Positions 2,081-34,316 are shown, numbered from the stretch's first letter. The stretch is 50,173 nucleotides of DNA from Nanobdellota archaeon (GCA_039714095.1 JBDLJZ010000002.1:1-50173), one strand, 5' to 3'. The notes: generated by a model from the sequence alone, not told the origin. Numbers and translations are program-made.

Positions 2081-2170
2081 CTACGCGATTTTCGTCAGAT
2101 TGCACGAAAAAAATCGCCCAACCGCAACGAGAGGGAAGGTTACGCGAAGGAAACCGTAGGTGTCCTCGCA
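2081..2170 (+). repeat. G+C-rich structured repeat, family 1, copy A (hairpin H1 + tail, abuts the rpl11 ATG)
   Basis: H1 hairpin gcgattttcgt-cagattgc-acgaaaaaaatcgc at 2085..2117. 35 nt are identical to copy B. The tail ggaaaccgtaggtgtcctcgca lies directly before ATG 2171. Confidence 0.6.
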
Positions 2171-2821
2171 ATGCAGATTAAAATTTTAGCAGAAGGCGGA
2201 GCAATGAAGCCAGGACCAGCTTTAAGCCAAAAGCTTGGGCCAGCAGGAATTAATATTAATGAAGTTATTCTAAAAGTAAATGAAGCAACAAAAAATTTCA
2301 AAGGATTAAAAGTTCCAGTTGAATTAGAAGTTGATTTGGGAACAAAAGAATTTGAAGTAAAAGTTTCTTCACCACCAATGTCAGAATTAATGAAAAGAGA
2401 GCTTGGAATTGAAAAAGGTTCAGGAACACAAAAGAAAATGCAAGTAGCAAATGCATCTATTGAACAAGTTATTTCTGTAGCAAAAACAAAATTGCCAAAT
2501 CTTTTGGCTAAGGATTTGAAAGCAGCAGTAAAATTGACTATTGGAACTTGTACAAGTTTGGGAGTATTAATTGAAAATAAACCTGCAGTTGAAGTGGCAA
2601 AAGAAATTGAAGAAGGAAAATATGATAAAGAAATTCAGGACGAAAAAACAGAAACTTCTGAAGAAAAGAAAAAAGAACTGGACGAATATTTCTCAAAGAC
2701 AAATGCAGAACAGCAAAAGATTTTGAAACAAGAAGAAGCTGTTAAAGAAGCTGAGGCAGAAAAGAAAGCAGAAAAAGAAGTTGAAAAACCTGCCGAGAAA
2801 AAAGAAGAACCTAAAAAATAA
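2171..2821 (+). CDS. rpl11: 50S ribosomal protein L11 (uL11) with a Lys/Glu-rich C-terminal extension
   Basis: GGAMKPGPALSQKLGPAGININEV matches the uL11 N-terminal domain motif. At 216 aa it is longer than the roughly 160 aa I recall as typical, and the tail is EKKKELDEY..EAEKKAEKEVEKPAEKKEEPKK. Confidence 0.9.
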   Translation: MQIKILAEGGAMKPGPALSQKLGPAGININEVILKVNEATKNFKGLKVPVELEVDLGTKEFEVKVSSPPMSELMKRELGIEKGSGTQKKMQVANASIEQVISVAKTKLPNLLAKDLKAAVKLTIGTCTSLGVLIENKPAVEVAKEIEEGKYDKEIQDEKTETSEEKKKELDEYFSKTNAEQQKILKQEEAVKEAEAEKKAEKEVEKPAEKKEEPKK

Positions 2822-2871
2822 TTCTAATAAGAAGATTTATTAAACTAAAATAGGTATGTAATTTTATGTAT

Positions 2872-2944
2872 GGGGTTATGGGGTAGCCTGGTAGCCTTTC
2901 AGGTTTGGGGCCTGACGACCCCGGTTCAAATCCGGGTAACCCCA
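2872..2944 (+). tRNA. tRNA-Pro (anticodon TGG)
   Basis: Hand-folded cloverleaf: acceptor GGGGTTA/TAACCCC, D-arm GGGT-AGCCTGGTA-GCCT, anticodon stem TCAGG/CCTGA with loop TTTGGGG (TGG, G37), T-arm CCCGG-TTCAAAT-CCGGG, discriminator A. 73 nt, no encoded CCA. Confidence 0.85.
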
Positions 2945-3143
2945 TTATTACAACATTCTCCGAATGTTGTAAATTTTATTAACCCAAGGATTTGATATCC
3001 TTCAAATTCCGAGCACCTCTGAAATTTCTAATAAATGAACAGAAATTCAAAAGTGAATTTAAAGAAAATTTTACGGGTTGGGAGTTGGTAACCCCATATT
3101 TTAAAACAAAACATTTTAAAACCAAATTCATTACTTATTTCCA

Positions 3144-3362
3144 ATGGCAACAAAATCAAAAAAAACAAAATCAGCAGGAAGATTCGGAGCAAGATATGGT
3201 AAACGAATCAAAGATAATCTTGTAAAAGTTGAAACTAAACAAAGAGTAAAACAAAAATGTCCTTTTTGTGAAAAACTTGGAGTAAAACGACTTTCAAAAG
3301 GAATCTGGAGCTGCTCAAAGTGTGATAAAAAGTTCGCATCAAATACTTATCATTTAGATTAA
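3144..3362 (+). CDS. rpl37ae: 50S ribosomal protein L37Ae (eL43)
   Basis: AGRFGARYG N-terminus plus zinc ribbon CPFC..CSKC. 72 aa. Confidence 0.9.
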   Translation: MATKSKKTKSAGRFGARYGKRIKDNLVKVETKQRVKQKCPFCEKLGVKRLSKGIWSCSKCDKKFASNTYHLD

Positions 3363-3507
3363 ATTATTTTTGAAGCATAACAAAAATTTCAAAAATAATC
3401 CCAAAGGGCGAGTGTTTCAATGATTACGAGTATAAAGATTTTTAAAAAAATCTACAATAAATTTAAATACTTAAAATAATAAAAAACAAAATGGACAAAA
3501 AATTAAA

Positions 3508-3654
3508 TATGCGATTTTCGTCAGATTGCACGAAAAAAATCGCCCCCCAAATGAAGGGAATGGTTAAGCCGAAGTTATTGGAAAGCGACAAAAGTCAAAC
3601 ACTAATAACGACTTTTCAATGGCTGAGCCAAAGGAAACCGCAGGTGTCCTAGCA
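3508..3654 (+). repeat. G+C-rich structured repeat, family 1, copy B (H1 + H2 + tail, abuts the rpoP ATG)
   Basis: H1 at 3511..3543 is identical to copy A. H2 is an imperfect long hairpin at 3571..3629. The tail aaaggaaaccgcaggtgtcctagca precedes ATG 3655. Confidence 0.6.
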
Positions 3655-3792
3655 ATGACAACTTACAAATGTTTCAAATGCGGGGAAAAAATAAAAAACC
3701 AAGATTTAGATAAAAGATTTGTTTGTCCACATTGCGGAAGTTTAATTTTTTTTAAATCAAGAACAAAATTAAGAACACTAAAAACAGACTAA
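3655..3792 (+). CDS. rpoP: DNA-directed RNA polymerase subunit P (Rpo12), 45 aa, below the ORF-track cutoff
   Basis: Own translation: MTTYKCFKCGEKIKNQDLDKRFVCPHCGSLIFFKSRTKLRTLKTD. CxxC..CxxC zinc ribbon. The stop overlaps the next ATG (TAATG). Matches the rpl37ae-rpoP-pfdB gene order I recall for archaea. Confidence 0.75.
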   Translation: MTTYKCFKCGEKIKNQDLDKRFVCPHCGSLIFFKSRTKLRTLKTD

Positions 3793-4106
3793 TGGAACAA
3801 AATAACTCTATACAAGAAATGCAAATGATTGAACAAAACCTTCAAAATATTTTAATGCAAAAACAAGCTTTTCAAATGGAATTTTCTGAAACACAAGGCT
3901 CATTAAAAGAAGTAAAAGAATCCAATGATGAGGTTTTTAAAATTGTAGGACAATTTATGATAAAGACAAATAGAGACAAAATAACAGAAGAATTAACTAA
4001 TAAAGAAAAAATAATTGATTTAAGAATTAAATCTCTTGAAAAACAAGAAGCAACATTTTCAGAGCAATTGACAAAATTAAGGGATAAAGCACTAAAGAAG
4101 AATTAA
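3792..4106 (+). CDS. pfdB: prefoldin beta subunit
   Basis: 104-aa coiled-coil / beta-hairpin / coiled-coil pattern (..DEVFKIVGQFMIKTNRDKITEEL..). Position is immediately after rpoP. Confidence 0.7.
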   Translation: MEQNNSIQEMQMIEQNLQNILMQKQAFQMEFSETQGSLKEVKESNDEVFKIVGQFMIKTNRDKITEELTNKEKIIDLRIKSLEKQEATFSEQLTKLRDKALKKN

Positions 4107-4126
4107 TATACAAAAGTCACGAAATC

Positions 4127-4134
4127 TTTATAAA
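4127..4134 (+). promoter_or_regulatory. putative TATA box (TTTATAAA) about 26 nt upstream of the sepF ATG (leaderless-type spacing)
   Basis: The sequence ctTTTATAAAtat is centred 26 nt before ATG 4156. The same box and spacing recur before other genes. Confidence 0.4.
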
Positions 4135-4155
4135 TATCTTACATATAAAATTAAT

Positions 4156-4548
4156 ATGGTATTCAATAAAATAAGAAAAGCCTTGTCAGATTCTTCTGTT
4201 GATTCTTTTGAAGATGAATATTTAGAAATTGATTTAGAACAACAAAATAAAAAAGAAAAAAAAGTAATGGTAAAACTTTTCTCATTAAAACAATACGAAG
4301 ATGTTAATGATATTCTAAATTCTTTAAGAGAAGGCTATACAATTGCAGTTATTGATATACAAGTTTTGAGAAAAAAAGATTCTATTGAGTTAAAACGAGC
4401 AATTTCTAAATTAAAGAAAACAACAGATGCTCTCGAGGGAAACATTGCAGGATTTGGAGAAAATATAGTTATTGTAACTCCTTCTTTTGCACAAATACAC
4501 AAAGAAGTTTTACAGCCAAAAAAAGAAGGCGGATTTGATACTTATTAG
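4156..4548 (+). CDS. sepF: cell division protein SepF (FtsZ anchor)
   Basis: C-terminal SepF-like core: LREGYTIAVIDIQVL..LKRAISKLKKTTDALEGNIAGFGENIVIVTP. ftsZ is present in the same window. Confidence 0.7.
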   Translation: MVFNKIRKALSDSSVDSFEDEYLEIDLEQQNKKEKKVMVKLFSLKQYEDVNDILNSLREGYTIAVIDIQVLRKKDSIELKRAISKLKKTTDALEGNIAGFGENIVIVTPSFAQIHKEVLQPKKEGGFDTY

Positions 4549-4556
4549 TTCAAAAC

Positions 4557-4564
4557 TTTTATAA
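4557..4564 (+). promoter_or_regulatory. putative TATA box (TTTTATAA) about 27 nt upstream of the dph2 ATG
   Basis: The sequence acTTTTATAAct lies before ATG 4587. Confidence 0.4.
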
Positions 4565-4586
4565 CTCTCTCTAATTTATTTCTTAT

Positions 4587-5198
4587 ATGAAAACTTTGTT
4601 TATTCCAGCAAAATCAACTTTACAAATTACAGATTTAGAAATAAAATCTCTATCAAAAAAACTTCCTAAAAATTTCACAATTGCTTATTCTATACAATAT
4701 AAAGAATTAGCAGAAAAAATAAAATTAAATCTTTCCAAAAAACACAAAATAAATTCATTTATTCAAGTCTTAGGTTGTAGTAAACCAAAATTACCAAAAA
4801 GCACAAAATCAGTCTTATTAATAAGTGATGGAAAATTTCACGCAACTTCTTTAGCCTACGAAACAAAAATTCCAGTTTACCTATTTACTAGTGGAATTTT
4901 AGAAAAAATTTCAAAAAAAGAAATAGAAATTTTTTCAAAAAAACAAAAAGGCGCTTACTTGAAATATCTTCACGCAGAAAAAATAGGAATTTTAATTTCA
5001 ACAAAATCTGGACAAGAAAATCTCAAAAAAGCAATAGATTTTCAAAAGAAAATAAAAAATAAAAAATCTTACCTATTTATTAGTAATAATATAGATACAA
5101 ATGAATTTGAAAATTTTCAAATAGATTCATGGATTAATACTTCTTGTCCAAGAATGGATATGAATGAAGGTTCTATAATTAATATTAGCAAGATTTAG
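4587..5198 (+). CDS. dph2: compact Dph2-like protein (diphthamide synthesis, radical-SAM-type 4Fe-4S)
   Basis: VLGCS, DGKFHATS and NTSCPRM resemble the three Cys-containing Dph2 motifs as I recall them. At 203 aa it is shorter than I recall for archaeal Dph2 (roughly 330 aa). Confidence 0.5.
   Translation: MKTLFIPAKSTLQITDLEIKSLSKKLPKNFTIAYSIQYKELAEKIKLNLSKKHKINSFIQVLGCSKPKLPKSTKSVLLISDGKFHATSLAYETKIPVYLFTSGILEKISKKEIEIFSKKQKGAYLKYLHAEKIGILISTKSGQENLKKAIDFQKKIKNKKSYLFISNNIDTNEFENFQIDSWINTSCPRMDMNEGSIINISKI
5154..5198. repeat. direct repeat copy 1 (functional dph2 3' end)
   Basis: ATGGATATGAATGAAGGTTCTATAATTAATATTAGCAAGATTTAG matches 6529..6573 at 41 of 45 positions. Confidence 0.8.
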
Positions 5199-5199
5199 T

Positions 5200-5487: not shown

Positions 5488-5488
5488 A

Positions 5489-6448: not shown

Positions 6449-6488
6449 ACTATTTAATAAATATAAAACTTATTAAAACCTTTCTTTT

Positions 6489-6505: not shown

Positions 6506-6528
6506 AAATCCACATAACATCTTGCCTA

Positions 6529-7301: not shown

Positions 7302-7328
7302 CCATAGTAACTCCCAAATGACTACAAA

Positions 7329-9949: not shown

Positions 9950-11230
9950 CTAATCCTTATACAAAAAAACAAAAGTTTTTCCAGAAAGTTTTTTATTGAT
10001 CAATCCATTTTTTTCTAAAAGAAATAAATCAGTTCTTGCAGTTTGATAAACAATGCCATAAGTTTCAGAAATTTCTTTAATAGTAAATAATTTTGATTGA
10101 TATTTTGTAAATTCTTCAAAAATTAAAGCTTGCCTCAAATTTAAATCTGGATTATTTTTTATTAATTCTTTTGTTTTTTTCTGTTCCTTTTGTTGTATTT
10201 TAATATATTCAATTAAGTCATTTAGAGTATCCTCAACACTATTTAATATATATTTTATAAAATATGTTAAATCCATATTATCATATTCTGTGTATAAATA
10301 AGATAAATCATAATTCTTTCTAGAACGAAGAATTCTTTTAGAAACTGCCATATATTCAAACAACCAATAACCTTGAGAAATCATATACCAATAAAAAATA
10401 CTTCTTGCAGACCTTCCATTTCCATCATTAAAAGGATGAATATATCCTATTAGAAAATGTAAAATAATCCCTTTAACTATTGGGTGAATAAATTCTTCTG
10501 AATTGTTATTAGCAAAATTGCAAAATTCATCAATTAAATTTTGTACTTCCTTGTATTTAGGAGGAATATGAGCAATTACTTCATCATCTCTAACCATTAT
10601 GTCATCATTGTCTCTAAATTTTCCTTCATCTGCAGAATCGTCTAAAGTGTTTTTAGTAACGGTTTTTTGTATTTCTAAGATTAGCTCAGGAGTAATTTTT
10701 TTATTTTTTTGTTTATGTATAAATTGCATTGTTTCATAATTATTAGAAATCATTTTTTCAGACTCAGTTCTTGGTTTTCTTTTTTCCCTAAGCATAGCCT
10801 TGGCAACTTTTCTTGTTGTTATTGCACCTTCTAATTGGCTAGATGCTATAGCTTCTTCCATTAAAGAACTAATTAGATAACTTTCTTGAACATTTAATGA
10901 TTTTCCATCTAACTGAATATTTCCAGCTAAATTTTTATCAAATCTATGTAATTTTTTATTAAAATCAGATAATAAACTATGCACCATTTTTATTCCCTTA
11001 AACTTTATTTTTTCATAGTTATCTGAACGAAGCATTTTCATTAATGCCCAAATATATTCTCTTTTTGTTTTATCAGTTATTCTGTATTTTAATTCAGACC
11101 AATATAAATATCTCTTATTATATTCAGAGGCTAATTTTCTAAAATCTTCATTTTTTATAGCCTTTGCAAATCCTTCAAAATCTTTATCAAAAAGTTCTTT
11201 TATTTCAAAGGGTTTTTCTGGCAATTTCAT
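9950..11230 (-). CDS. fic: Fic family AMPylase (class II, N-terminal inhibitory helix) with C-terminal winged-helix domain
   Basis: Fic motif HPFNDGNGRSAR (HxFx[DE]GNGRxxR). Inhibitory motif SSQLEG ([ST]xxxE[GN]) lies upstream of it. The C-terminal LRQALIFEEF...TARTDLFLLEKNGLI is wHTH-like. Confidence 0.85.
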   Translation of the reverse strand: MKLPEKPFEIKELFDKDFEGFAKAIKNEDFRKLASEYNKRYLYWSELKYRITDKTKREYIWALMKMLRSDNYEKIKFKGIKMVHSLLSDFNKKLHRFDKNLAGNIQLDGKSLNVQESYLISSLMEEAIASSQLEGAITTRKVAKAMLREKRKPRTESEKMISNNYETMQFIHKQKNKKITPELILEIQKTVTKNTLDDSADEGKFRDNDDIMVRDDEVIAHIPPKYKEVQNLIDEFCNFANNNSEEFIHPIVKGIILHFLIGYIHPFNDGNGRSARSIFYWYMISQGYWLFEYMAVSKRILRSRKNYDLSYLYTEYDNMDLTYFIKYILNSVEDTLNDLIEYIKIQQKEQKKTKELIKNNPDLNLRQALIFEEFTKYQSKLFTIKEISETYGIVYQTARTDLFLLEKNGLINKKLSGKTFVFLYKD

Positions 11231-11235
11231 TTTAG

Positions 11236-11329
11236 TTTATCTACTAATTTAGTATTCATTAGTAGATTTTAGTAATTAGGACTATTTAAATTTATCTACT
11301 AATTTAGTATTCATTAGTAGATTTTAGTA
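11236..11329. promoter_or_regulatory. two perfect 39-bp direct repeats, each containing a 10-bp perfect palindrome (candidate operator pair upstream of fic)
   Basis: tttatctactaatttagtattcattagtagattttagta occurs at 11236..11274 and 11291..11329. Palindrome arms are ATCTACTAAT / ATTAGTAGAT with a 9-nt spacer. Confidence 0.5.
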
Positions 11330-17734: not shown

Positions 17735-18108
17735 TTTTTTTATTTTTTAACCTCCTTTCAATTCTATACTCGTTGTCTATGACAACTTCACCTGATAAAT
17801 ATTTTTATCAGAGGAATATAAATGAAAGTATAATTACCTGTCGTATTATTTCTTTAAAAAGATTACGACACTTTTTTTTAGGTTTTCCTCTAAAAACCCC
17901 TAATTTCAAGGTTTATTATATAAATATTATGCTGTCACTAAATCATTAATACATATACAAAATTAATACTAAAACAAAATATTTATTAATAGGGTTTATT
18001 TTAGTAATATATATAAAATATTAATAGATAAGTTTAAACTATATTTTTTACTTATCTATTTAGAAAAATACTATGGCAAAACAGGAAGAAAAATATCAGA
18101 ATTTAGAC

Positions 18109-18127
18109 ATCAGATATCAGAAATCGG
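18109..18127. repeat. left copy of a 19-bp perfect direct repeat bracketing a RelE/antitoxin cassette
   Basis: atcagatatcagaaatcgg, identical to 18754..18772. Embedded in iterated ATCAGAA-like heptamers (18095..18152). Confidence 0.85.
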
Positions 18128-18162
18128 AATTCAGAAGTCAAACATCAGAATCCAATGATTGT

Positions 18163-18420
18163 TCAATAAATCTTGTCGTGATGTTTAAATCTATTAAAGA
18201 TAAGAATGTTCTTTTCAACTTTGAATATAAGAACAAAACTTCCAATATGAACTCTTTTATAGTCTTTCAGATTTCCCCTAAGATTTTTAAAATGATTGAT
18301 AGAAATAATATCAAGATTAGCAATTTGATTAATTTTTTTTTGAACCGCTTTAAACAATTGAATGTCTTTTCTTTTGAGTTTTTTGAGAGTTTTTTGAATA
18401 AGTGTAATATCTACATTCAT
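18163..18420 (-). CDS. RelE/ParE-family toxin
   Basis: ..YKRVHIGSFVLIFKVEKNILIFNRFKHHDKIY. Start moved to MNVDI (18420), which gives the usual 4-nt ATGA overlap with the antitoxin stop. Confidence 0.65.
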   Translation of the reverse strand: MNVDITLIQKTLKKLKRKDIQLFKAVQKKINQIANLDIISINHFKNLRGNLKDYKRVHIGSFVLIFKVEKNILIFNRFKHHDKIY

Positions 18421-18692
18421 ATTGAATCGCACCAATCATTAAACTTATTCAAAGTCATTGGTTTTATTTCACCAGATTTAAGTTTTTTAAAAGTTTGTAT
18501 AGTGGATTCAACAATTTCCTTAACAATAGATTCTTTAACTTCTCTAAAATCGTCTTCAGGAATTTCAGATATGCCATCAATCAAAGATAATTTTAAATTC
18601 ATTACAAATTGTTTAACAACTTTATCTAATGCTAATTTGAATTCTTCATTAAGTTCAGAAGGCACGTCAACTTTAACAACAACTTCAGTCAT
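18417..18692 (-). CDS. cognate antitoxin (family not recognised)
   Basis: 91-aa acidic protein immediately upstream of, and overlapping, the toxin gene. Confidence 0.5.
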   Translation of the reverse strand: MTEVVVKVDVPSELNEEFKLALDKVVKQFVMNLKLSLIDGISEIPEDDFREVKESIVKEIVESTIQTFKKLKSGEIKPMTLNKFNDWCDSI

Positions 18693-18753
18693 GCAAAATA
18701 ATAATAAAGAGGGTTACTTAAAACTTTCTAATAAATATTTCAAAGAGTTTAAT

Positions 18754-18772
18754 ATCAGATATCAGAAATCGG
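18754..18772. repeat. right copy of the 19-bp perfect direct repeat
   Basis: atcagatatcagaaatcgg. Confidence 0.85.
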
Positions 18773-18808
18773 TTCCCACTATGATGAGAGATAGGGGGTG
18801 TCCTCGCT

Positions 18809-19168
18809 ATGGCTAAAAACAAAACAAAAACAAGAGAAATTACAATAAAAGAATCTAAAGGAGCATTTTCATTATTAAAAAAATCTGGAGTATCAAAAAA
18901 AGATTATGATTTTTCAGGAGTTCTCGCTTTAAGACAATTATTAAGTAATGAAAAAGCAAGAATTTTAAATGTTATTAAGACCCAAAATCCCACTTCAATT
19001 TATGATTTAGCTAAAAAACTTGGGAGAGGTTTTAAATCTGTAAGTGATGATATTAAACTTTTAGAGAGGTTTGGATTTATTGAACTCATTGAAGAAAAAA
19101 CAAAAAATAGAATTAGACATCGCCCAGAAATAGTAGTAGATAGTATAATTATTAATATCAAAGTTTAG
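18809..19168 (+). CDS. winged-helix transcriptional regulator (ArsR/MarR-like)
   Basis: ..LSNEKARILNVIKTQNPTSIYDLAKKLGRGFKSVSDDIKLLERFGFIEL.. has an HTH-plus-wing pattern. The ATG is preceded by the family-1 tail ggtgtcctcgct (18797..18808). Confidence 0.55.
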   Translation: MAKNKTKTREITIKESKGAFSLLKKSGVSKKDYDFSGVLALRQLLSNEKARILNVIKTQNPTSIYDLAKKLGRGFKSVSDDIKLLERFGFIELIEEKTKNRIRHRPEIVVDSIIINIKV

Positions 19169-20260: not shown

Positions 20261-20356
20261 GAAGGGTTACGCCGAAGTTATTGGAGAGCGACAAATGTTA
20301 AAAACCAATAGCGACTTTCCAATGGCTGAGCAAAAGGAAACCGTAGGTGTCCTCGC
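20261..20356 (+). repeat. G+C-rich structured repeat, family 1, copy C (H2 + tail, + orientation between two minus-strand genes)
   Basis: gaagggttacgcc, then the H2 hairpin (20274..20331), then aaaggaaaccgtaggtgtcctcgc. The last base is shared with the stop codon of the upstream gene. Confidence 0.6.
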
Positions 20357-21282
20357 TACCATAATCTACACTGACTATTTAATTCATTATCATTAATTTT
20401 TTGTGCAATATTCCATACACTTCCAATATTAGCAGAGTCAATTAATCCATTAGCAGAATTACTTAATTGAACCAAATCATTTCCTAAATTTGAATTACAA
20501 CCTCTCTGAGAAATAAATGATTCTTTGTCTTGATAAATTTTAGATAGTTGTTTTATTCTTTTCATAATTCTTTGTAATTGACAATTATAAATTTTTTTAT
20601 CTGAAAAAATTGTAGCATACATTAATGCATCTGTTCTAAAATGCAAAATTTCTCCCTCTTTTTCAACTGTTTGTGCCCCATAATTAACTTGCACATCACA
20701 ATCTTCATAATTAAAACAAACATTTATTTTATTTGATAAATCCTCACAATCTTTTGTAAAAATATTTCCTTGGCTTAGGGTTTCTAACTCTTCTTTAATA
20801 TTTTCTGGTGCATTTAAAAAACAATAATTTTTATTTGAAGATGTTAAATAAATTAAATCTGTAACTTTAAAAGGAAATTCCAAGGGTTTTGAAAAAATGT
20901 AAAATGTTTTTCCTTCTGCATATGCTTCTGAAAAAATATATTTATTCTCAAAGCTTACTTCTACATCTGTTTGCGTCCATTTATCAAAACTTTTTTGAGA
21001 AATTTGAATTCCTTGTTTTCCAAAAACACTTAAGTTATTACATCTGTTATAAATTCTTGTTTCAGCAGGAAAAATAATTGTAGTAGTTTTTCCAACTTCA
21101 AACCCAGTCTCTAAAGGATTCAATAACACTCCGATTTCATTTGCTGTTTTAGCCCCAATAATAGTCTCTTGTGTACTAATTGTTTTTGTCACAGCATAAA
21201 TTGTTAGAGATAAAATCATTGCACCAACAATAATAGCAAAAAGCCAAGCAAAAGATATTTGTAAAAATCCTTTTTTATTCAT
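20356..21282 (-). CDS. class III signal peptide (type IV pilin-like) protein, about 308 aa
   Basis: MNKKGF|LQISFAWLFAIIVGAMILSL. Start moved from TTG 21333 to the internal ATG, which removes the overlap with the upstream gene. Confidence 0.6.
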   Translation of the reverse strand: MNKKGFLQISFAWLFAIIVGAMILSLTIYAVTKTISTQETIIGAKTANEIGVLLNPLETGFEVGKTTTIIFPAETRIYNRCNNLSVFGKQGIQISQKSFDKWTQTDVEVSFENKYIFSEAYAEGKTFYIFSKPLEFPFKVTDLIYLTSSNKNYCFLNAPENIKEELETLSQGNIFTKDCEDLSNKINVCFNYEDCDVQVNYGAQTVEKEGEILHFRTDALMYATIFSDKKIYNCQLQRIMKRIKQLSKIYQDKESFISQRGCNSNLGNDLVQLSNSANGLIDSANIGSVWNIAQKINDNELNSQCRLW

Positions 21283-21292
21283 CTTCTTAGAT

Positions 21293-21886
21293 TTATTTAA
21301 TTGTAACCAATGCTTCTCCATATTGTTTTTCAATTACAAGTTTAATTTTACCTTTTATATTTTCTACACAAAACGGATTATCTCTTAAAATTGTCTTTGC
21401 TAAATCAAGATGTTTAATCTCTTTTGAATTTAATCCTTCTGAAGACCCCCCAGGATAGAAAAACAAATTTTCATGTTCTTGATGTAATTGTTTTAATTCA
21501 CTAAAATAAATTCTATATTTCCCCCTGTCTCCTGCAGGATAAAGAGAGTAATCTGCAAAGCAAACATGACTTATTTTTGAAGGCAAAAAATATTCTTTTT
21601 CTTGAGAACTTTGGGTTCCTTTCCATGCTTTATCAATATCTGTTTGAAGATTGTTTGCAAATTTTGCAATTTGTGCTGTGTCCCCTAAATTAAGAAATTT
21701 TTTAATTGCAAAAAAAGAAAACGAAATAAAAATTATAATTAATATAATTGAAAAAATCATCCCAAAAGACAATTTCATCTGCCCTTGTTTATCACATCTT
21801 TTGCCCTTTGTAAAAATCTTCGAAGAAGATTTTTCGGGGCCTCGTAGAGGTTCTCGCACCTCCTTGGTGTACGCCTGTGGTGTCAT
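21293..21886 (-). CDS. class III signal peptide (type IV pilin-like) protein whose 5' end is occupied by repeat family 2
   Basis: ..CDKQGQ|MKLSFGMIFSIILIIIFISF. The only in-frame start upstream of the KQGQ site is the repeat's own ATG (MTPQAYTKEVREPLRGPEKSSSKIFTKGK); the next in-frame ATG is the Met immediately after KQGQ. Confidence 0.55.
   Translation of the reverse strand: MTPQAYTKEVREPLRGPEKSSSKIFTKGKRCDKQGQMKLSFGMIFSIILIIIFISFSFFAIKKFLNLGDTAQIAKFANNLQTDIDKAWKGTQSSQEKEYFLPSKISHVCFADYSLYPAGDRGKYRIYFSELKQLHQEHENLFFYPGGSSEGLNSKEIKHLDLAKTILRDNPFCVENIKGKIKLVIEKQYGEALVTIK
21802..21886 (+). repeat. G+C-rich structured repeat, family 2, copy 1
   Basis: Hairpin AAAAATCTTC-gaa-GAAGATTTTT (21812..21834), then cggggcctcgtagaggttctcgcacctccttggtgtacgcctgtggtgtcat. 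Confidence 0.65.
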
Positions 21887-27293: not shown

Positions 27294-28168
27294 TCTCTAA
27301 TCGCTCCTGATGTAATCCCATAACCTGAAGGCCAAATATAACTACGCGAGGCAAACTGAAATTTCTCTCCAGTGTCTCTGTTAGTTAAAATATAAATTGT
27401 TGTTCCATCTCCTTGTTTTTTCTTTTCAACTTTTAAATCATGATAAAAATTCATATAAGTTGTTGTCTCGCTGTCTCCATATTTTGCTTCAAAATTTAAT
27501 ATACTAATTGCAATGCTAACTAATTCATAAAGATTATTATTCAAAACTATACTAAAGTCCTTGTATCTTTCTGAATCTTCTTTTGTTAATGTTAAAGTGT
27601 GATTAAAATTAGCAACAACTCTTTCAGGAAATAATCTAATTCCCATTTTTCCTAAATTAAGTTTTACATCATAACCTTTTCTTTCGTAACTTTTTTTCAT
27701 TTCTTCAAAACATTCTCTGGATGATTCAGCAATACTGTTTTCTAATTCTTCTTCAATGTGTTGTCTTAAAAACGGTTGTTGCATAACACAAGGTTCATAA
27801 TAATTTGATGTATAACATAAATATTCTAATTTCCCTCCCCCATATAAAAAATAATGTTCAGGATTCAAACTCCCACCATTTGCAGAAATAATACCAATAT
27901 TTTCTTGTATCTGTTCTTCAAGACATAATTGAATAAATTCTGTCGGACTTTTTGCACCAATTCCTAATGTTGTTTGCAACTGAGGATAAAACATATAAAT
28001 AGCAACACCAATCCCAACAATTACAATTGATAAAATAATAAACAATGTAACCTGCCCCTTGTAAACATCTTTGGAAAAGATGTTTCGGGGCCTCGTAGAG
28101 GTTCTCGCACATCCTTGGTGTACACTAAAATATGTGTGTCCTTTTTTGTTTGAATTTTTCTCACCCAT
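27290..28168 (-). CDS. class III signal peptide protein (292 aa), paralog of 32533..33309, with repeat family 2 inserted in its leader
   Basis: ..VYKGQ|VTLFIILSIVIVGIGVAIYMF. EFIQLCLEEQIQENIGIISANGGSLNPE aligns with SFLESCIEEKINEAIDLIAIQGGNIKPE of the 258-aa paralog. Confidence 0.6.
   Translation of the reverse strand: MGEKNSNKKGHTYFSVHQGCARTSTRPRNIFSKDVYKGQVTLFIILSIVIVGIGVAIYMFYPQLQTTLGIGAKSPTEFIQLCLEEQIQENIGIISANGGSLNPEHYFLYGGGKLEYLCYTSNYYEPCVMQQPFLRQHIEEELENSIAESSRECFEEMKKSYERKGYDVKLNLGKMGIRLFPERVVANFNHTLTLTKEDSERYKDFSIVLNNNLYELVSIAISILNFEAKYGDSETTTYMNFYHDLKVEKKKQGDGTTIYILTNRDTGEKFQFASRSYIWPSGYGITSGAIRE
28053..28125 (+). repeat. G+C-rich structured repeat, family 2, copy 3
   Basis: Hairpin AAACATCTTT-gga-AAAGATGTTT (28063..28085), then cggggcctcgtagaggttctcgcacatccttggtgtacac. 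Confidence 0.65.
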
Positions 28169-28872: not shown

Positions 28873-28905
28873 CTACGCGATTTTTGTCAGAGGCAATTTA
28901 AAAAG
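28873..28905 (+). repeat. fragment related to family 1 (5' half of H1 joined to aggcaatttaaaaa as at the 3' end of copy D)
   Basis: ctacgcgatttttgtcag matches copy A's ctacgcgattttcgtcag at 17 of 18 positions. Overlaps the stop of the 1216-aa gene. Confidence 0.35.
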
Positions 28906-31900
28906 CACTTGGAGAAATTGAAACACATGTTCCAACATTTTCAAGATTATCCTTACACTTAATATAATATGTTTTTTCAGAATTCCATTCAACATAATGC
29001 TCAATTGTTGCTTCAAATCCAGGCTCCATTAATGTTGTAGTATTCATCTCAAAATTGCATTTTTTCAAAATATCATTGTTATAATAACATCTTGATTTTT
29101 TATGCGTTTCAATTCCAAGTAAACTCCCTGAACGATATATAACCGCAATCTCTGGTGAGGTGTTGTCAATTTCTAAAGTGAATACAATACTCTCCTCAGC
29201 CACATTTCCTGTAGAATCTTCACACATAATTGGAATATTATAATCTCCACTTACAAAAAATAAATTTTGAGTATGCATTGTTGTATCAGTATCAAAAAAT
29301 TCTAATTGAGGGTCTAAATCTGAACTTAATAAATCTCCCGAAGGAAAATAACATTTTGCAATACCCGTACCGTCGGCTCCACCAGATGTTGTAACTCTTA
29401 AAGTCATTTCATAATCTCCTGTAGCACTGCTCACCTGATTATATTCTGTAGGTGTGGCAGAAGTAATTTTTAATGTGCTAATAGAAGGATTTATTGTGTA
29501 TTCTTTGTAAGCTATATTTACATTTCCTTGAGTATCATTACATTTGAAATAAAGTTTATTTGGATCACTCGTACTAAGTCCAGTAATATCTGCAAAGTCG
29601 CAACCATATTTTAATCTTGGAAAACAAGAATCATCATCACGAATATATCCTTCACAAAACAAAGATTTAGTCATATCTTCATAATTTGTTGTTTCATCAA
29701 AACTATAACCACATTCAACTAAAGGCTCATTAGCATAAATTTTAGGGCTGTCTAAAGTATCATTTCCAAATATTAAATAACTTCCATCTTCTGGAGAAAA
29801 TTCCTTAATAATTGGAGGACGAATATCTGGAGTTGGATTTACACACATCTGAATATTGTATGCAGTTAATTGTGCGTTTCCTTCGTGTCCTTCACATCTA
29901 ACATAAACATTAAATTCTCCATCTTCACCAAGACAATTATCACTAAAAGAAGCAACTCTAATTTCAAAATTATTTTCTTTTGTCCAAACAAATCCCGAAG
30001 TTGGCCTGCCAATCCAATCTGTTTTATATGATGTCAAATCTGATGGAGCAGTTCCCCAGATACATCTTGCAAATTTGTTTTCTTCATCCTTATCAGTTGT
30101 TAAATTAAAATTTAATAAAGTATTTCCTTCAACACACCCATTCTCATTTGAATTATTTGTGATTATTATTCCTGTTTCAAGTGCACCATTAGATTGGATC
30201 GTTGTTGTTAAATCTCCAGAAAAACTGCCCACATTAAAATTAATAACTGGTGGCGTAGGGTCAAGTTCTTTTTTAACACAAATAACTTCATCTGTTGCAA
30301 CACCTTCTTCTTCAACTAATACTTCACAATTTTTCCCTAAGCTCCAACATTTATATTCTGTGCAAGGGAATTCTCCTTCATTACATTTATCACACTCCTG
30401 ACTTCTTGCAGGAGGTTCCCACGGCTCACACGAAAAACTAACTTCTGACTTTTCTAATTTTCCAATTTTATCACCTTGTTGCCAATTAAATACAACTAGT
30501 TCTATTATGGCTGCAACTATTGTTACAATATAATTAGCATAAATTCCTATTAATCCTCCAACCTGATTTACCTGTCTAAATTTAAGTAAACCTCTACTTC
30601 CTTCATCAAGAGTTTCTTCGCATACTTGTTCTCCTTCTATTTCAACACATTCAATTTCTCCTAATTGGCTATTAATCAGGTTTAGAATAGTAGAACTTGA
30701 AGAACCTAAACTTGAAGCTAAATTTGCAAAGGTAGGAGAATTATTTTCTTCAGGAGTATTATTTATCCTAACATATCTCTCTTTTAAACTATCTTTTCCA
30801 GTATAATTTCCAACAGTATTAACATAACCTGCACAATCTCCCAAACTCACACAAAAATCATTCATCTGACTATAAAATCTCTCTGGATTTTTATCACACT
30901 CTTTATTTGCAATATAATCTAAATAAACTCTTTCTAAAATAAGACACCCCCATATAGGTTCCCAAGCAACACATTTTGCTTTGTATTGTTGAATAATTGG
31001 ACAAGACATTGATGCAAAGCTACAAACACTTTCATCATCTTCTGCTGAATAAATTGGGTTAAATCCTTGAGGATATTTTGGAACACAAACATCAAATTTA
31101 AAAAAATCAACTTCATCATCTTTTACAACATTTATATTTTGCATTCTACAATCTGACTCATCTTCACAATCTTCTACATTCTCTATTCCAAAACAATTTA
31201 ATCCCATATTTGGTCTGCATGTTGCTTCAGTGTAAGAAATAGCACTTTCTCCTTCTCCGATTTCAACAGCATGCTCTCCACAAATATTCTCTCTATAAAC
31301 TCCGCAATTAATTGTTGTTATCTCTCCTTGAATACATGATTTTCTATAATGAGAAGAGCCAGGAATATCTGAAGAAATTTGAACTCCAGTTTCATCATTA
31401 ATATATTCTCCAACCTGTCCTTCATAAACACACCAACTCTCTCCATTTTTCCTCTCTTTATTATTATCTGTTTCATCCACACAGCTTAAATCTGCACAAA
31501 CAAAATTATCCTCTGCAACATGAGTTTCTGAACTATCAACTGGTTTACATGTATTAAATACACTATCACAATTTCCGCATGTATCTAAATTATTTGGATT
31601 ATTTACATCAATTGTGCAAACTTGCGAACCTACTATTTTTACAAATCCTTGATTCCAACTTTCATCTTTTAATGCAGGAGTATTTCCTTCATAAACATTT
31701 TCCATATTTCCACAAGAATCAAACCAATAAATTTTTTCATCTAAACAATTAATACTCTCTTGTTTAGTACAAATTGTGTCTAATCCTTCATTAGAACATA
31801 AACTTCCTTCATGAAAAGTCCTACTTTCTATACATTCTGCCCCACTATTAAATTCACAATTATTTTCTCCATTTACTTGATAAACACAAGCACCATTTGC

Positions 31901-32548
31901 ATCTGATGAAATATCTCCACATAGTTCTTCAGGTATTGTATCATCAAAAATTCCACCTTGCAAATCACACCAAGCTTGCGAATTGTATTGTGTATTTGTT
32001 CCTAAATCCTGACAACAACCAAGAGTACATTCATCTGCTTCATTAAACCATTCTCCATTATTTTCTTCACAAGTAATTCTAGGAGATAGGGCAGAGCATA
32101 AACCATCTGTACCAATACAATCTCCCAATTTACAAAATGTTGTTGAACCACAATCTGATTGCACATTTGTAGTATCACAATCCTCTTGCAATACATCTTC
32201 TTGACAAAATGCTCCTTCTGTTGTTTTCTCACAGCAAGTTGTCGCCGAAACAAAACCAATTTGATTTATTGATAAAAATCCAACTACTAAGTTTAAACTT
32301 GACTTAATTATTTTTTTAGAAATTTCACTTATCTCTGAATTAATTTTTATTTCTTCACTATTAAGATTATAACTTTGAGCAATAGTAAAATTAATTAGTA
32401 AAATTATTTGAAATATACTAAAAATTAAAATTATTTTTCTGCCCTCAGTAAAAATTTTTGCAGAAGATTTTTCGGGGCCTCGAAGAGGTTCTTGTGCTGG
32501 GAGCTTTAGCGAGGCAGTATACGCCTGTGGTGTCATCCTATAATACAC
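28898..32548 (-). CDS. 1216-aa giant cysteine-rich surface protein (a fused equivalent of the 562-aa + 807-aa pair)
   Basis: The N-terminal half is collinear with 24951..26639 and the C-terminal half with 21931..24354 (FSCEPWEPPARSQECDKCNEGEFPCTEYKCWSLGKNCE). The track start is GTG 32548. ATG 32536 (MTPQAY) overlaps the upstream stop as ATGA and may be the real start. Confidence 0.75.
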   Translation of the reverse strand: MYYRMTPQAYTASLKLPAQEPLRGPEKSSAKIFTEGRKIILIFSIFQIILLINFTIAQSYNLNSEEIKINSEISEISKKIIKSSLNLVVGFLSINQIGFVSATTCCEKTTEGAFCQEDVLQEDCDTTNVQSDCGSTTFCKLGDCIGTDGLCSALSPRITCEENNGEWFNEADECTLGCCQDLGTNTQYNSQAWCDLQGGIFDDTIPEELCGDISSDANGACVYQVNGENNCEFNSGAECIESRTFHEGSLCSNEGLDTICTKQESINCLDEKIYWFDSCGNMENVYEGNTPALKDESWNQGFVKIVGSQVCTIDVNNPNNLDTCGNCDSVFNTCKPVDSSETHVAEDNFVCADLSCVDETDNNKERKNGESWCVYEGQVGEYINDETGVQISSDIPGSSHYRKSCIQGEITTINCGVYRENICGEHAVEIGEGESAISYTEATCRPNMGLNCFGIENVEDCEDESDCRMQNINVVKDDEVDFFKFDVCVPKYPQGFNPIYSAEDDESVCSFASMSCPIIQQYKAKCVAWEPIWGCLILERVYLDYIANKECDKNPERFYSQMNDFCVSLGDCAGYVNTVGNYTGKDSLKERYVRINNTPEENNSPTFANLASSLGSSSSTILNLINSQLGEIECVEIEGEQVCEETLDEGSRGLLKFRQVNQVGGLIGIYANYIVTIVAAIIELVVFNWQQGDKIGKLEKSEVSFSCEPWEPPARSQECDKCNEGEFPCTEYKCWSLGKNCEVLVEEEGVATDEVICVKKELDPTPPVINFNVGSFSGDLTTTIQSNGALETGIIITNNSNENGCVEGNTLLNFNLTTDKDEENKFARCIWGTAPSDLTSYKTDWIGRPTSGFVWTKENNFEIRVASFSDNCLGEDGEFNVYVRCEGHEGNAQLTAYNIQMCVNPTPDIRPPIIKEFSPEDGSYLIFGNDTLDSPKIYANEPLVECGYSFDETTNYEDMTKSLFCEGYIRDDDSCFPRLKYGCDFADITGLSTSDPNKLYFKCNDTQGNVNIAYKEYTINPSISTLKITSATPTEYNQVSSATGDYEMTLRVTTSGGADGTGIAKCYFPSGDLLSSDLDPQLEFFDTDTTMHTQNLFFVSGDYNIPIMCEDSTGNVAEESIVFTLEIDNTSPEIAVIYRSGSLLGIETHKKSRCYYNNDILKKCNFEMNTTTLMEPGFEATIEHYVEWNSEKTYYIKCKDNLENVGTCVSISPSAF
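32440..32536 (+). repeat. G+C-rich structured repeat, family 2, copy 2 (diverged middle)
   Basis: tgccctcagtAAAAATTTTtgcagAAGATTTTTcggggcctcgaagaggttc...acgcctgtggtgtcat. Confidence 0.6.
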
Positions 32549-33309
32549 CCCCTAACTGCAAACCTAAATAACTTATCTATTTCTCTATTTTTTACACTAT
32601 AAATTTTTTCACCTTCGCTATCAATAAATAAACTAATTTTTATGTCAGGATAAATTAACATATAAGAATTTATATTAAATTCACAATATTGTGCTTCAGA
32701 ATTCAAAATACTATGAACAATAAGAACCAACTCATATAAATTAGTATGAATAATGGTTCCGATGTTTTGCATTTTAGAGCTTTCATCGTTTTTTATTAAA
32801 TCCAATTCCCCATCTAATATTAATTTTACTCCTTCAAAATTTAATTTAACTTCAAATCCATTATAAATTTTTTTTACATCATAATTTTGTTTTTCTAAAT
32901 TTTCTGCTAATTTATTAAAGCAAATTTTTACATCATCTCTAATATAATTTTCAATTTCTGTTTCAATGTGGCTCGTTAACATAGGAACTTGATTAATACA
33001 TCTATCATAAGAATTTTGATTATAACATAAATAAGAAATATTTACTGGCTCAGCTTCGTCTTTAAATTTAAATCTTTTTTTTAATTCAGGTTTAATGTTC
33101 CCTCCTTGTATCGCAATTAAATCAATTGCCTCATTAATTTTTTCTTCAATACATGACTCTAAAAAAGAATTTGGATTAATTTCTTTTCCCCCACCAATAT
33201 TTGGAATTAATCCTTGTCTAAAAAGAAAATAAAATGCAATTGCCACAACAATTAAAATCCCCGCAACAATAAAAATCGTTAATTGCCCCTTATTATTTGC
33301 ACCCTTCAT
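32533..33309 (-). CDS. class III signal peptide protein (258 aa), first gene of the array
   Basis: MKGANNKGQ|LTIFIVAGILIVVAIAFYFLF. Confidence 0.6.
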   Translation of the reverse strand: MKGANNKGQLTIFIVAGILIVVAIAFYFLFRQGLIPNIGGGKEINPNSFLESCIEEKINEAIDLIAIQGGNIKPELKKRFKFKDEAEPVNISYLCYNQNSYDRCINQVPMLTSHIETEIENYIRDDVKICFNKLAENLEKQNYDVKKIYNGFEVKLNFEGVKLILDGELDLIKNDESSKMQNIGTIIHTNLYELVLIVHSILNSEAQYCEFNINSYMLIYPDIKISLFIDSEGEKIYSVKNREIDKLFRFAVRGCIIG

Positions 33310-33339
33310 AAATATTAATTAAAAATAAATTATATAAAC

Positions 33340-34065
33340 TTAATCATCTGTCTCAACTCTCGGCGCAAGAATAAAACTTAATTCCATCCCGTTATCTCTT
33401 AAATCCATTCTCAATGGATGATTAGCAGCAAAATTCAAAATAGTTTTTTCACTTAATTTACAACCCTTAATAAATTTAGAAAGATATTCCAAACTATATC
33501 TAGATTTACAATCTTCTGCATTAATTTGTGCTTCATCTCCAGAAAATTCTGCACGAGCAGAATTCAATCCTTTAGCTTCAATTATAAATTTCCCTTCCCC
33601 AACAATAAATGAACAAGCCTCTGCAACAATTGAACAATCTTCAACAGAATCAATTAAATCAGAAGAATTAATTTCAACTCTTGAACTAAATTCCAAACTC
33701 GGCATTTCCTTGTCTTCGCTTTCAATATTAATCAAACCCAAACTAAAATTTCTCAAAATTCTATCTTCAATTCTAATATTTAACATATTTTCTTGTTTTT
33801 CTAAAATTAAAGAACTCTTTGTTCCACATCTTTTTAAAATTCTTTTAAAATCATCTAAATTAACTCCTAAAACTTCATCTGTTACTTCAAACATAGAAAA
33901 AAAACTCTTTGGGAGTTTAAATCCAACCATTGCAACATTTGCAGGGTCAATAGCAACAATACTCATACCAAATTCATTTACTTTTAATCTGACTTCAGAG
34001 ACTAATTCAGAAATAATCTCTACAGCTTTTGATAACATTAAAGGATTATCTAATTTAACTTTCAT
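33340..34065 (-). CDS. pcn: DNA polymerase sliding clamp PCNA
   Basis: 241 aa. ..AVEIISELVSEVRLKVNEFGMSIVAIDPANVAMVGFKLPKSFF.. and the C-terminal ..HPLRMDL...MELSFILAPRVE are typical of archaeal PCNA. Confidence 0.9.
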   Translation of the reverse strand: MKVKLDNPLMLSKAVEIISELVSEVRLKVNEFGMSIVAIDPANVAMVGFKLPKSFFSMFEVTDEVLGVNLDDFKRILKRCGTKSSLILEKQENMLNIRIEDRILRNFSLGLINIESEDKEMPSLEFSSRVEINSSDLIDSVEDCSIVAEACSFIVGEGKFIIEAKGLNSARAEFSGDEAQINAEDCKSRYSLEYLSKFIKGCKLSEKTILNFAANHPLRMDLRDNGMELSFILAPRVETDD

Positions 34066-34119
34066 TTTTTAGAAAAACCTTTTTGTCTTATAAGCATTTC
34101 TGTTATTTAGTATAAATAA

Positions 34120-34316
34120 CTATGCGATCTTCGTTGGATTGCACAAGAAAAATCTCCCATCGCAAAGGGCAGAGAAAACGAGCGATTTCATTTGCACTAT
34201 CTACGAAGTGTCGTAAGCAAATGGGGTCAGGAGCCAAAAAAAACTAGCTTAGGTGAGCAATTACACTTGCATCAAATTCCAAAGGCAATTTAAAAAAATC
34301 GCAAGCGTGATTGGGA
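34120..34316 (+). ncRNA. G+C-rich structured intergenic element (diverged family-1 copy D), candidate small RNA of unknown class
   Basis: Begins ctatgcgatcttcgttggattgcac (H1 5' half) and ends ggcaatttaaaaaaatcgc (H1 3' half). Internal hairpin CATTTGC-actatc-TACGA-agtg-TCGTA-a-GCAAATG at 34189..34223. Confidence 0.35.

Follow-up and report, generated by a model that had tools for sequence, protein, structure and literature searches.

A modular hairpin repeat at start codons in DPANN archaea, a candidate mobile leader cassette

The 50,173-nucleotide stretch JBDLJZ010000002.1:1-50173 (the window, taken at its full length) comes from a DPANN-type archaeon, has a G+C content of 28.7% and encodes FtsZ, Spt5, L11, L37ae, RpoP, prefoldin, PCNA, an intein-bearing PriL, an S-layer-like protein and type IV pilin-like proteins. 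The subject of this analysis is a modular G+C-rich repeat within it, family 1, copies of which stand directly upstream of the L11 and RpoP genes. Elsewhere in the window, genes mostly show a TATA-like box approximately 25 nt upstream of the ATG and no Shine-Dalgarno (SD) sequence, which gives them a leaderless appearance. Only one public run, a marine metagenome, holds the genome, and an exact look-up of the window's L11 protein gave no database record. As far as we could find, family 1 is a real and apparently undescribed family. The genomes of DPANN archaea are tiny and compact, most of these organisms remain uncultured, and repeats have been thought to be few in them; a structured cassette common to dozens of their species was previously not known. 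The cassette is placed at the start codons of core translation and transcription genes, and also in tRNA introns and in the interiors of enzymes.

Anatomy of family 1 in the window

A full-length cassette spans approximately 120-135 nt and comprises an A-rich head with an ATG (typically beginning ATGAAAATTCAAATAAATAAATTAAAT), a hairpin termed H1, a short linker and a 38-nt core, which consists of an AGGGAAG box and a 10-bp hairpin containing GGUG (Table 1). The core of copy A ends 1 nt upstream of the L11 ATG at 2171, and in both copies A and B a GGTG lies 8 nt upstream of the ATG. The earlier note on this DNA had described a modular repeat supplying the ribosome-binding context of several genes among mostly leaderless ones, and that description held, family 1 being the sole source of an SD-like context among genes that are otherwise leaderless. 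The refined anatomy likewise confirmed that a further hairpin module, H2, is present in copies B and C and absent from A. H2 is nested within the core at a point that is identical in B and C, and in other genomes (L022, L030, L038 and L042) this point is occupied by hairpins other than H2.

Copy C, which has neither head nor H1, lies antisense to two minus-strand pilin-like genes and takes up the spacer between them, its final base overlapping the TAG that ends the gene at 20356-21333. It looks like an antisense-oriented insertion occupying the whole intergenic spacer, and a role as an antisense regulator would be hypothetical; the same arrangement may be present at locus L013 of another genome. 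Relic E overlaps the stop codon of a minus-strand 1216-aa open reading frame (ORF), and relic D is located between the divergent PCNA and PriL genes, upstream of the TATA box that belongs to PriL.

The similarity between copies is far from chance. The 16-mer of the core's 3' end (the tail), allowing up to 3 mismatches, matched the window 5 times against 0.03 expected by chance, and GGTGTCCTCGC, allowing 1 mismatch, matched 4 times against 0.01 expected, one match being the relic at 18797-18807. The H1 33-mer is identical in A and B, and the identity between these copies spans 35 nt. Three covariance models were used, R1 for the consensus core, R3 for H1 and a third for diverged cores. The H1 model recovered A, B, D and E, of which E was outside the training set, whereas the core model detected no copy in the window beyond those listed in Table 1. 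All of the copies that had been reported, including the relic at 18797 and the H1-only relics D and E, were thus found in place and well above chance, and their modules could be mapped.

Table 1. Features of family 1 and associated elements. Locations are window positions unless a locus of another genome (L or P number) is named.
Feature	Location	Strand	Description
Copy A head	2050..2084	+	ATG at 2050 and A-rich stretch with AATTAATTAAAT; ATG within the last Spt5 codons
Copy A hairpin H1	2085..2117	+	8-bp stem GCGATTTT/AAAATCGC; 45.6 bits with R3
Copy A linker	2118..2131	+	CCAACCGCAACGAG; conserved CCWNCCGC motif, from alignment
Copy A core	2132..2169	+	AGGGAAG box and 10-bp GGUG hairpin; 67 bits with R1
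Copy A leader ORF	2050-2181	+	Starts at head ATG; gene-caller form is a 50-aa ORF, 2029-2181
Copy B head	3491..3510	+	ATG at 3491, ~22 nt past TATA-like box, then AAATTAAAT
Copy B hairpin H1	3511..3543	+	Identical to copy A H1; R3 match
Copy B linker	3544-3554	+	
Copy B core, 5' part	3555..3569	+	AGGGAATGGTTAAGC
Copy B H2	3570..3629	+	Extra hairpin module nested within core
Copy B core, 3' part	3630..3653	+	CCTAGC variant, giving leader ORF stop TAG 2 nt before RpoP ATG at 3655
Copy B leader ORF	3491-3652	+	53-aa gene-caller ORF; stop TAG from CCTAGC variant
Copy C	20261..20356	+	Core 5' part 20261-20272, H2 20273-20331, core 3' part 20332-20356; no head, no H1
Relic of core 3' end	18797..18807	+	GGTGTCCTCGC, 11 nt; 1 nt before ATG of helix-turn-helix gene, inside 3' end of ORF 18073-18816
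Relic E	28876..28907	+	H1 with truncated 3' arm; 21.8 bits, E = 0.004 with R3
Relic D	34123..34316	+	H1-like hairpin 34123-34157, then H2-like module and second H1 3' half; no core
Spt5 start filled	L020, L028, L042, L116, L127, perhaps L059		
L11 start filled	Window, L104, L052, L122/L126, perhaps L111		
L37ae start filled	L032, L063, L086, L114, L116		
RpoP start filled	Window, L032, L064, L101, L109		
Copies in TRM5/TYW2	L001, L008, L050		In frame, stop-free
Copy in NPPY-type methylase	L005		In frame, stop-free
Copies in Elp3	L007, L043		In frame, stop-free
Copies in LigD-PE (LigD 3'-phosphoesterase)	L016, L048, P0001		In frame, stop-free
Extra ORF between Spt5 and L11	L056, L067, L076, L078, L080, L082, L090, L093, L096, L108, L110, L114, L124, L126, L127, L129		
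H2-type modules	3570-3629, 20273-20331, ~34178-34236; L020 5032-5095; L101 3890-3960; L052; L022; L038		
Family 2	21802-21872, 28053-28123, 32440-32510; also L019 ~2400-2560, L038 1-140	minus (sense)	

Spread and placement among relatives

When one genome per species was scanned for GGAAACCGNAGGTGTCCTNGC, at least 50 stretches were retrieved, and two of those listed are chance matches in actinobacteria. The tail 21-mer was thereby located at a minimum of 48 loci in approximately 40 metagenome-assembled genomes (MAGs) labelled Pacearchaeota, Woesearchaeota, Nanoarchaeota or 'archaeon'. One of the 48 listed loci carries the label Patescibacteria; its contig may be mis-binned, since it holds an intron-bearing tRNA like those of the archaeal loci. 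Although not demanded by the search, the 17 nt upstream of its pattern are conserved too (AGGGAAGRTTAAGCGAA), and this extends the conserved unit to the 38-nt core. In the source metagenome the genome has a depth of approximately 75, the 35-nt H1 unitig a depth of 148, and two further contigs of the same depth as the genome carry the core, which indicates at least five core copies in the source genome. Further copies therefore exist both in this genome and elsewhere. IMG/VR viral contigs held no match for family 1 or for a second family described below, and a metagenome scan for cores that differ from the consensus solely at G29 gave no match.

The cluster SecE-Spt5-L11-tRNAPro-L37ae-RpoP-prefoldin is conserved at four of the first loci and at 80 metagenome loci fetched with the L11 alignment. 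Together these make up a sample of approximately 85 relatives, the metagenome part of which is independent of the search pattern, and filled sites were scored with the three models. At each of the four gene starts the cassette is present in approximately 5-6 of the 85 genomes, or 6-7% (Table 1; the L122 and L126 sequences are identical and probably represent one organism). Junctions without a cassette are short, with the Spt5 stop typically overlapping the L11 ATG (AATGCAGATTAA; ATGA-type) or lying a few nt from it. Such low occupancy of orthologous starts argues for insertion and not for a conserved leader. The alternative that these regions are ordinary 5' untranslated regions (UTRs) present in all relatives was not borne out, as the orthologous Spt5-L11 and L37ae-RpoP junctions are empty in most of them, and the presence at orthologous 5' UTRs expected of a conserved cis-regulatory leader or riboswitch was not observed across the approximately 85 genomes; the structural covariation also expected of one is present in H1 and the core. 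The occupancy is nevertheless well above the rough random expectation for a 5-10-copy element, suggesting that the cluster, like tRNA genes, is a favoured place.

This preference could also reflect common control of highly expressed genes (r-proteins, Spt5, RpoP, SMC, tRNAs) by a cis-regulatory RNA motif that is bound by a trans factor, be it an RNA-binding protein, the ribosome or a small ligand, and whose mobility enlarges the regulon. Ribosomal protein leaders and regulons of the 5' terminal oligopyrimidine (5'TOP) type are analogues. We consider this unlikely, because most relatives do without the cassette at the same genes and because antisense, intron and translated copies cannot serve such a role, even though an occupancy of 6-7% at Spt5, L11, L37ae and RpoP, against less than 1% per gene for a 5-10-copy element (a rough estimate, not computed), and the gene-sense orientation of every copy in the cluster loci would both agree with it. 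A regulatory motif would likewise fit the partial sequestration of the SD in a hairpin and the invariance of the single-stranded AGGGAAG box and the hairpin centre GAAACCGUAGGUGUC while the subfamily stems covary, but no candidate factor is known and no Rfam family matched. The latter scan, which had been suggested as a check, covered the whole window and the elements with Rfam 15, both at the gathering score and at E up to 10; only tRNA-Pro passed the gathering score, and nothing credible matched the elements. A match of the snoZ17 C/D-box family in H2 was dismissed (22.6 bits against a 44-bit cut-off), and a likeness of the core to 5S rRNA helix III or signal recognition particle RNA helix 8, noted by eye, was without covariance-model support.

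Several features point to copying. In addition to the sporadic occupancy, H1 types are homogeneous within genomes, both orientations occur in introns, H2-type hairpins are nested inside the core or inside H1, tandem partial copies are present at L025, L039, L057 and L116, and direct repeats of 9-30 nt surround some copies. These signs are what a purely selfish palindromic repeat would leave, one of the repetitive extragenic palindrome (REP), Rickettsia palindromic element (RPE) or mitochondrial GC-cluster type, with its hairpins and AGGGAAG box recognised by a transposase or recombinase on folded single-stranded DNA. Its positions would then reflect insertion tolerance only, with SD and leader ORF incidental; copies in tRNA introns in both orientations and in frame within ORFs agree with this, as does the balance of G-U and A-C cells in the stems, expected if both DNA strands or a DNA hairpin matter. 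However, copies that precede a protein gene are without exception in sense and have their ends no more than 3 nt from the ATG, leader ORFs are enriched at the start-abutting copies, and orthologous copies keep their hairpins by compensatory change, which dead resident copies should not. Copy number is also low for such a repeat: the source genome has at least five core copies, and 417 kb of relatives gave 10 R1 hits (E up to 0.1), of which just 2 exceeded 45 bits. Neither terminal inverted repeats nor a constant target duplication were found, and no transposase turned up, although no search aimed at transposases was made. A purely selfish repeat is a possible explanation, to which we give clearly less weight than to the reading that follows.

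Our preferred reading, held at a probability of about 0.5, is that family 1 is a low-copy modular, structured insertion cassette spread through Pacearchaeota/Woesearchaeota-type DPANN archaea and, jointly, that it is a mobile leader cassette which keeps its host gene translated through coupling to a leader ORF (uORF) and an SD. Twenty-one of the 48 listed copies, together with window copies A and B, terminate 0-3 nt short of a genuine start codon, and every one of them is in sense. The core's 3' end abuts the ATG directly (0 nt) in 15 of these 23 and lies 1-3 nt from it in the rest. Hosts of the start-abutting copies among the 48 include L37ae, Spt5, SMC and several genes named only from N-terminal sequence. 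A further 8 of the 48 are inside reading frames and 7 are in introns of tRNA genes (antisense to the tRNA in 5 cases and sense in 2), where the CCTCGC end is 0-6 nt from the exon junction in antisense copies and approximately 9-11 nt in sense copies. Four neighbour a tRNA gene whose 5' part recurs, as a 14-20-nt copy, on the far side, one abuts the +1 position of tRNA-Val (L038), one is 1 nt from the 3' end of tRNA-Leu, and the context of 6 was not assigned.

The sharpness of the core's 3' boundary is also what would be expected of an RNA processing signal or ribozyme, in which a cut exactly after ...CCUCGC frees a leaderless mRNA at its AUG or a mature tRNA 5' end. The exact coincidence with the tRNA-Val +1, the proximity of core ends to exon-intron junctions and the leaderless starts of the genome otherwise would suit such a signal. 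It is improbable in our view: no known self-cleaving ribozyme or other Rfam family matched, antisense copies exist, and copies within ORFs are open in frame and avoid stops, consistent with being read through and not removed. The enrichment of uORFs would have no role in such a model.

The copies within ORFs (8, in 4 host protein families) carry changes in the H1 loop or in the GGTTAAGC site that remove the consensus TAA of the frame used. These stop-removing changes, together with the maintenance of frame, suggest that the copies are read through and not spliced, and by their sequence they are insertions that keep the host frame open and translated, in the manner of RPEs. A bulge-helix-bulge (BHB) intron in the mRNA was rejected as an explanation on the grounds that all 8 are in frame and stop-free; the BHB motif was not searched for formally.

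Two observations concern the cluster itself. In about a quarter of the relatives a small extra ORF of approximately 60-140 aa, often starting MNKLKQI.YE.RL, lies between Spt5 and L11 (Table 1). Its ATG is on the Spt5 stop (AATGAATAA), and the head of copy A (ATGAATAAAATCAAA) resembles its start. A conserved stem-loop, CTACTTCTTAGAAAGTTAAGAGGTAG, is present in the approximately 60-nt spt5 leader downstream of the TATA box (window 1563-1588; L028, L042 and L116), with or without a cassette.

Hairpins, leader reading frames and a proposed mechanism

The cassette is a new candidate RNA structure with clear covariation. In an alignment of 16 genomes, 5 of the 8 pairs of the H1 stem display double compensatory changes, with variants such as GCGATTT/AAATCGC, GCAACTT/AAGTTGC and GCGACTT/AAGTCGC among others. 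The core folds as GCGA-A-GGA-A-ACC/GUA/GGU-G-UCC-UCGC, and 5 of its 10 pairs have double changes (25 cells, 16-sequence alignment). Paired cells amount to 91.9% as compared to 76.3% in shuffles (0 of 500 reaching the observed value) and 36-63% with slid partners. The core sequences form approximately three or four subfamilies, and thus reflect few independent covariation events. Between subfamilies the outer stem changes from GCGA/TCGC to TGTA/TACA or TAAA/TTTA and the middle stem from GGA/TCC to AGA/TCT, while in the pattern-independent sample the AGGGAAG box and the hairpin centre remain unchanged. An alternative long-range fold, pairing a 5' arm CUUCC with the GGAAG box and a loop GCGG with the linker CCGC, appeared in some minimum-free-energy folds and was dropped because it was without covariation.

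Substitutions between the H2 stems of copies B and C had been taken to be compatible with pairing only in a plus-strand RNA. The substitutions are as described, each copy having three G-U pairs on the plus strand, and H2 alone favours that strand. The argument does not extend to H1 and the core, in which G-U and A-C cells are balanced; a strand call from their wobble pairs was given up, and these hairpins could matter as RNA or as folded DNA. A comparison of evolutionary rates was also discounted: the core was 92% identical and the downstream flank 72% identical in 13 orthologous pairs, but the search pattern had fixed 19 of the 38 core positions and the H2 insert mis-registers two pairs.

In full copies the ATG is followed by A-rich codons and then by AAATTAAAT, always in frame with the ATG. 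An ATG-started ORF reading through the cassette is present in 19 of the 23 start-abutting copies as compared to 6 of 19 copies in other contexts (Fisher P = 0.0014), and 13 of 17 independent uORFs use the same frame, even where H1 has been lost. The stop in this shared frame is the hairpin-loop TAG 7 nt before the host ATG, or a codon 4-13 nt past the ATG if the loop is GCA; counted to the end of the stop, the uORF closes 10 nt before the host ATG (loop UAG), or between 2 nt before and 13 nt past it. The GGUG, 7-8 nt ahead of the host AUG, falls within the 3' end of the uORF. At the other end, the start of the uORF is in overlap or contact with the preceding gene's stop codon at L018, L019, L027, L028, L037 and L049, follows a TATA box by approximately 22 nt in copy B and has its own GGAGG in L104. 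Diverged subfamilies have the same layout (ATGA overlap in L056, TAAATG in L116). The arrangement typical of leader-cistron coupling, with a stop near or over the main start and an SD in the 3' end of the leader ORF, is present in the same 19 of 23 copies. The suggestion that the head ATG is a long target duplication of the host start fits L047 (9 nt) and perhaps L126; elsewhere just ATG or AATG is shared, and it was rejected.

The shared frame, and head lengths that differ by multiples of 3, might instead indicate a tiny protein-coding gene whose functional product is a basic peptide of approximately 36 aa (..FFATSSGGNLRSCPTASKGKVKRRKP). This reading was already disfavoured and is very improbable. 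The peptide is altered wherever the stems covary, three different frames are in use, subfamilies encode unrelated C-termini, and synonymous variation of the kind that accompanies coding constraint is absent. When three cassette frames were compared with 5.8 billion proteins, one in-frame host protein was retrieved and no peptide family. The window ORFs at 2029-2181 and 3491-3652 are cassette uORFs and not conserved proteins.

Judging from this layout, a leader cistron that passes ribosomes to the next start, with GGUG as helper, is the most likely working mechanism of the mobile leader cassette. The cassette ATG would occupy the position of the host ATG, which is either a leaderless mRNA's 5' end or right on the stop codon of the preceding gene. 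Ribosomes would start at the head ATG and translate the short uORF through H1 and the core hairpin, melting both. Termination would then occur at the hairpin-loop UAG, located 7 nt ahead of the host AUG, or a few nt beyond this AUG, and be followed by re-initiation on the host AUG, aided by the GGUG SD; this coupling by termination and re-initiation is what we infer from the arrangement. The cassette itself would be copied at the DNA level, and only copies that keep the host gene expressed would survive, which is the proposed reason that many copies abut start codons. Other survivors would be found in tolerant sites, namely tRNA introns, in either orientation, and reading frames that are kept open and translated.

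A number of observations weigh against this mechanism. The AGGGAAG box, the linker and the hairpin-centre sequence are more conserved than an SD and a meltable hairpin need, and a bound factor or transposition enzyme may be involved. This apparent invariance is itself inflated by the exact-pattern search, as the unbiased L11 sample has many diverged cores. Transcription start sites, uORF translation and re-initiation are all things we infer; no RNA runs were found for L020, and three Saanich-type metatranscriptomes hold nothing of L018. A G+C-rich, ATG-started insert easily gives a long ORF, while the A+T-rich host soon provides stops, and part of the uORF pattern could thus be a by-product. 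Four start-abutting copies (L015, L020, L032 and L042) are without a uORF, and the copy upstream of RpoP in L032 has GGTA in place of GGTG. Finally, the strong link to tRNA genes, in 14 of the 48 listed copies, is not explained by tolerance alone.

A more speculative reading, which we regard as doubtful, is that of a mobile 'start-codon cassette', a selfish element of archaea with leaderless mRNAs, directed at the points where transcription or translation of highly expressed genes and tRNAs begins. It would persist by bringing its own start codon, leader ORF, meltable hairpins and SD. In a stranger version, the conserved core would be cut by, or would recruit, the RNA-processing activity that makes the 5' ends of leaderless mRNAs and tRNAs. 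Either version, if true, would represent a previously unrecognised class of archaeal element, one in which mobility is tied to translation initiation.

The cassette is of wider interest as well. It would serve as a natural experiment for the conversion of a leaderless gene to one led by an SD and a uORF. In practice it also poses a risk to annotation: gene callers are expected to mis-set starts, as with the spurious 50-53-aa ORFs in copies A and B, and to predict odd insertions in Trm5, Elp3 and LigD-PE homologues.

Related elements, family 2 and other repeats

The closest analogues of family 1 are RPEs and mitochondrial GC clusters. RPEs are reportedly short palindromic repeats found in intergenic DNA, in RNA genes and in frame in proteins as translated loops, and the family-1 cassette inserts in the same three settings. 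However, its host is archaeal (DPANN), no sequence similarity is visible by eye, its copy number is far lower, one subfamily is common to dozens of species-level genomes, and approximately half of its copies end at a start codon, in sense, with a read-through uORF. The G+C-rich clusters of yeast mitochondria, including 'byp' elements, are modular, nested hairpins in an A+T-rich genome, sporadic in occurrence and sometimes inside genes. The cassette is also G+C-rich, modular, nested and sporadic between relatives, but there is no evidence of ribosomal bypassing, as its copies in ORFs stay open in frame, and the start-codon placement and uORF/SD design are not known from GC clusters. Placement at start codons and a translated leader are what distinguish family 1 from these analogues.

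Other small stem-loop repeats resemble it less. REP elements and bacterial interspersed mosaic elements (BIMEs), Correia elements (Correia repeat enclosed elements, CREE) and MITEs (miniature inverted-repeat transposable elements) lack autonomy and can bring promoters, processing sites and SD-like sequence. Family 1 had been likened to decaying MITEs, a label that was not sustained: at least five core copies in the source genome is an apparently low number, and terminal inverted repeats are absent, the head (ATGAA..AAATTAAAT) and tail (..GGTGTCCTCGC) being unrelated and the best inverted 10-mer between the ends of copy A (TTCCTACGCG/CGCGAAGGAA) being internal. Nor is there a fixed target-site duplication, with 37 of 49 copies having no flanking repeat of at least 6 nt and the others having repeats of 6-20 nt, in one case 30 nt. 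The cassette differs from REP, BIME, CREE and MITE repeats further in being strictly sense before genes. REP elements or REP doublets (REPINs) with a REP-associated tyrosine transposase (RAYT) were rejected as a model in that the copies are single, few and also in ORFs and introns; no partner insertion sequence or RAYT gene turned up, although no search aimed at them was made.

In terms of mechanism, natural translational coupling relies on a leader cistron with overlapping stop/start pairs, and the synthetic 'bicistronic design' is said to consist of a leader ORF with the SD of the next gene in its 3' end and its stop at the next start. The cassette uORF similarly carries the SD of the next gene and has its stop near or over the next start, but the cassette is repeated, apparently mobile and found in otherwise leaderless archaea, and its coupling is predicted from layout. 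Transposed BHB tRNA introns of Thermoproteales, in which related sequences reportedly occur in introns of different tRNA genes, differ in that the cassette is just part of an intron, lies in either orientation and occurs also in mRNA leaders and ORFs.

Family 2 represents another widespread cassette, built on similar logic. On its working strand, the minus strand of the window, it begins with ATG (MTPQAYTKEVREPLRGPEK..), carries GGAGGTG and runs in frame into pilin-like genes. Its hairpin has compensatory changes (AAAATCTTC/GAAGATTTT versus AACATCTTT/AAAGATGTT), and it is present in other MAGs, for example in frame before a Cbf5-like gene in L019. The earlier note had proposed that the two families share a core. 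The 13/16 match to the family-1 tail core was reproduced in two family-2 copies, with a marginal P of 0.015 by shuffling, whereas the third copy matches at 10/16, which is chance level. Given the strand on which family 2 works, the match pairs family 1 in sense with family 2 in antisense, and a common core was rejected on these three grounds.

Modules of the H2 type (typically CGAGCGATTTCG...CGAGC/GGGAGTT, their ends being tandem G-A-like) act like a family in their own right (Table 1), and in other genomes are also found as solitary modules, either in the interval from tRNA-Pro to L37ae or in that from Spt5 to L11. Partial-core tandem arrays, each with a duplicated flank, are located at L116 6780-7015, L057 3159-3253 and L025 4758-4881, the last having a unit composed of a 30-nt tRNA-Cys 3' piece, a spacer and a core. 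A third conserved G+C-rich module, GGGGCACYAARGTTCCCCTTAYGSTAACCCCTC, shares tRNA-Ser and tRNA-Gly introns with the family-1 core (L034 ~3270-3310 and L044 ~3400-3440, both in reverse complement).

Additional repeats were seen in the window. The last 11 nt of tRNA-Pro (GGTAACCCCAT, 2935-2945) are repeated 152 nt downstream (3087-3097), flanking a segment; in the source metagenome 2956-3137 has a depth 2-2.5 times that of the genome, and one contig joins 3076 to 3410. This repeat-flanked segment looks like another small repeat that was inserted next to a tRNA. The intein of the large primase subunit (34373-37042) bears a LAGLIDADG domain. At 11229-11329, the spacer of two minus-strand genes contains two 46-nt direct repeats that are 96% alike, each with the palindrome CTACTAATTTAGTATTCATTAGTAG.

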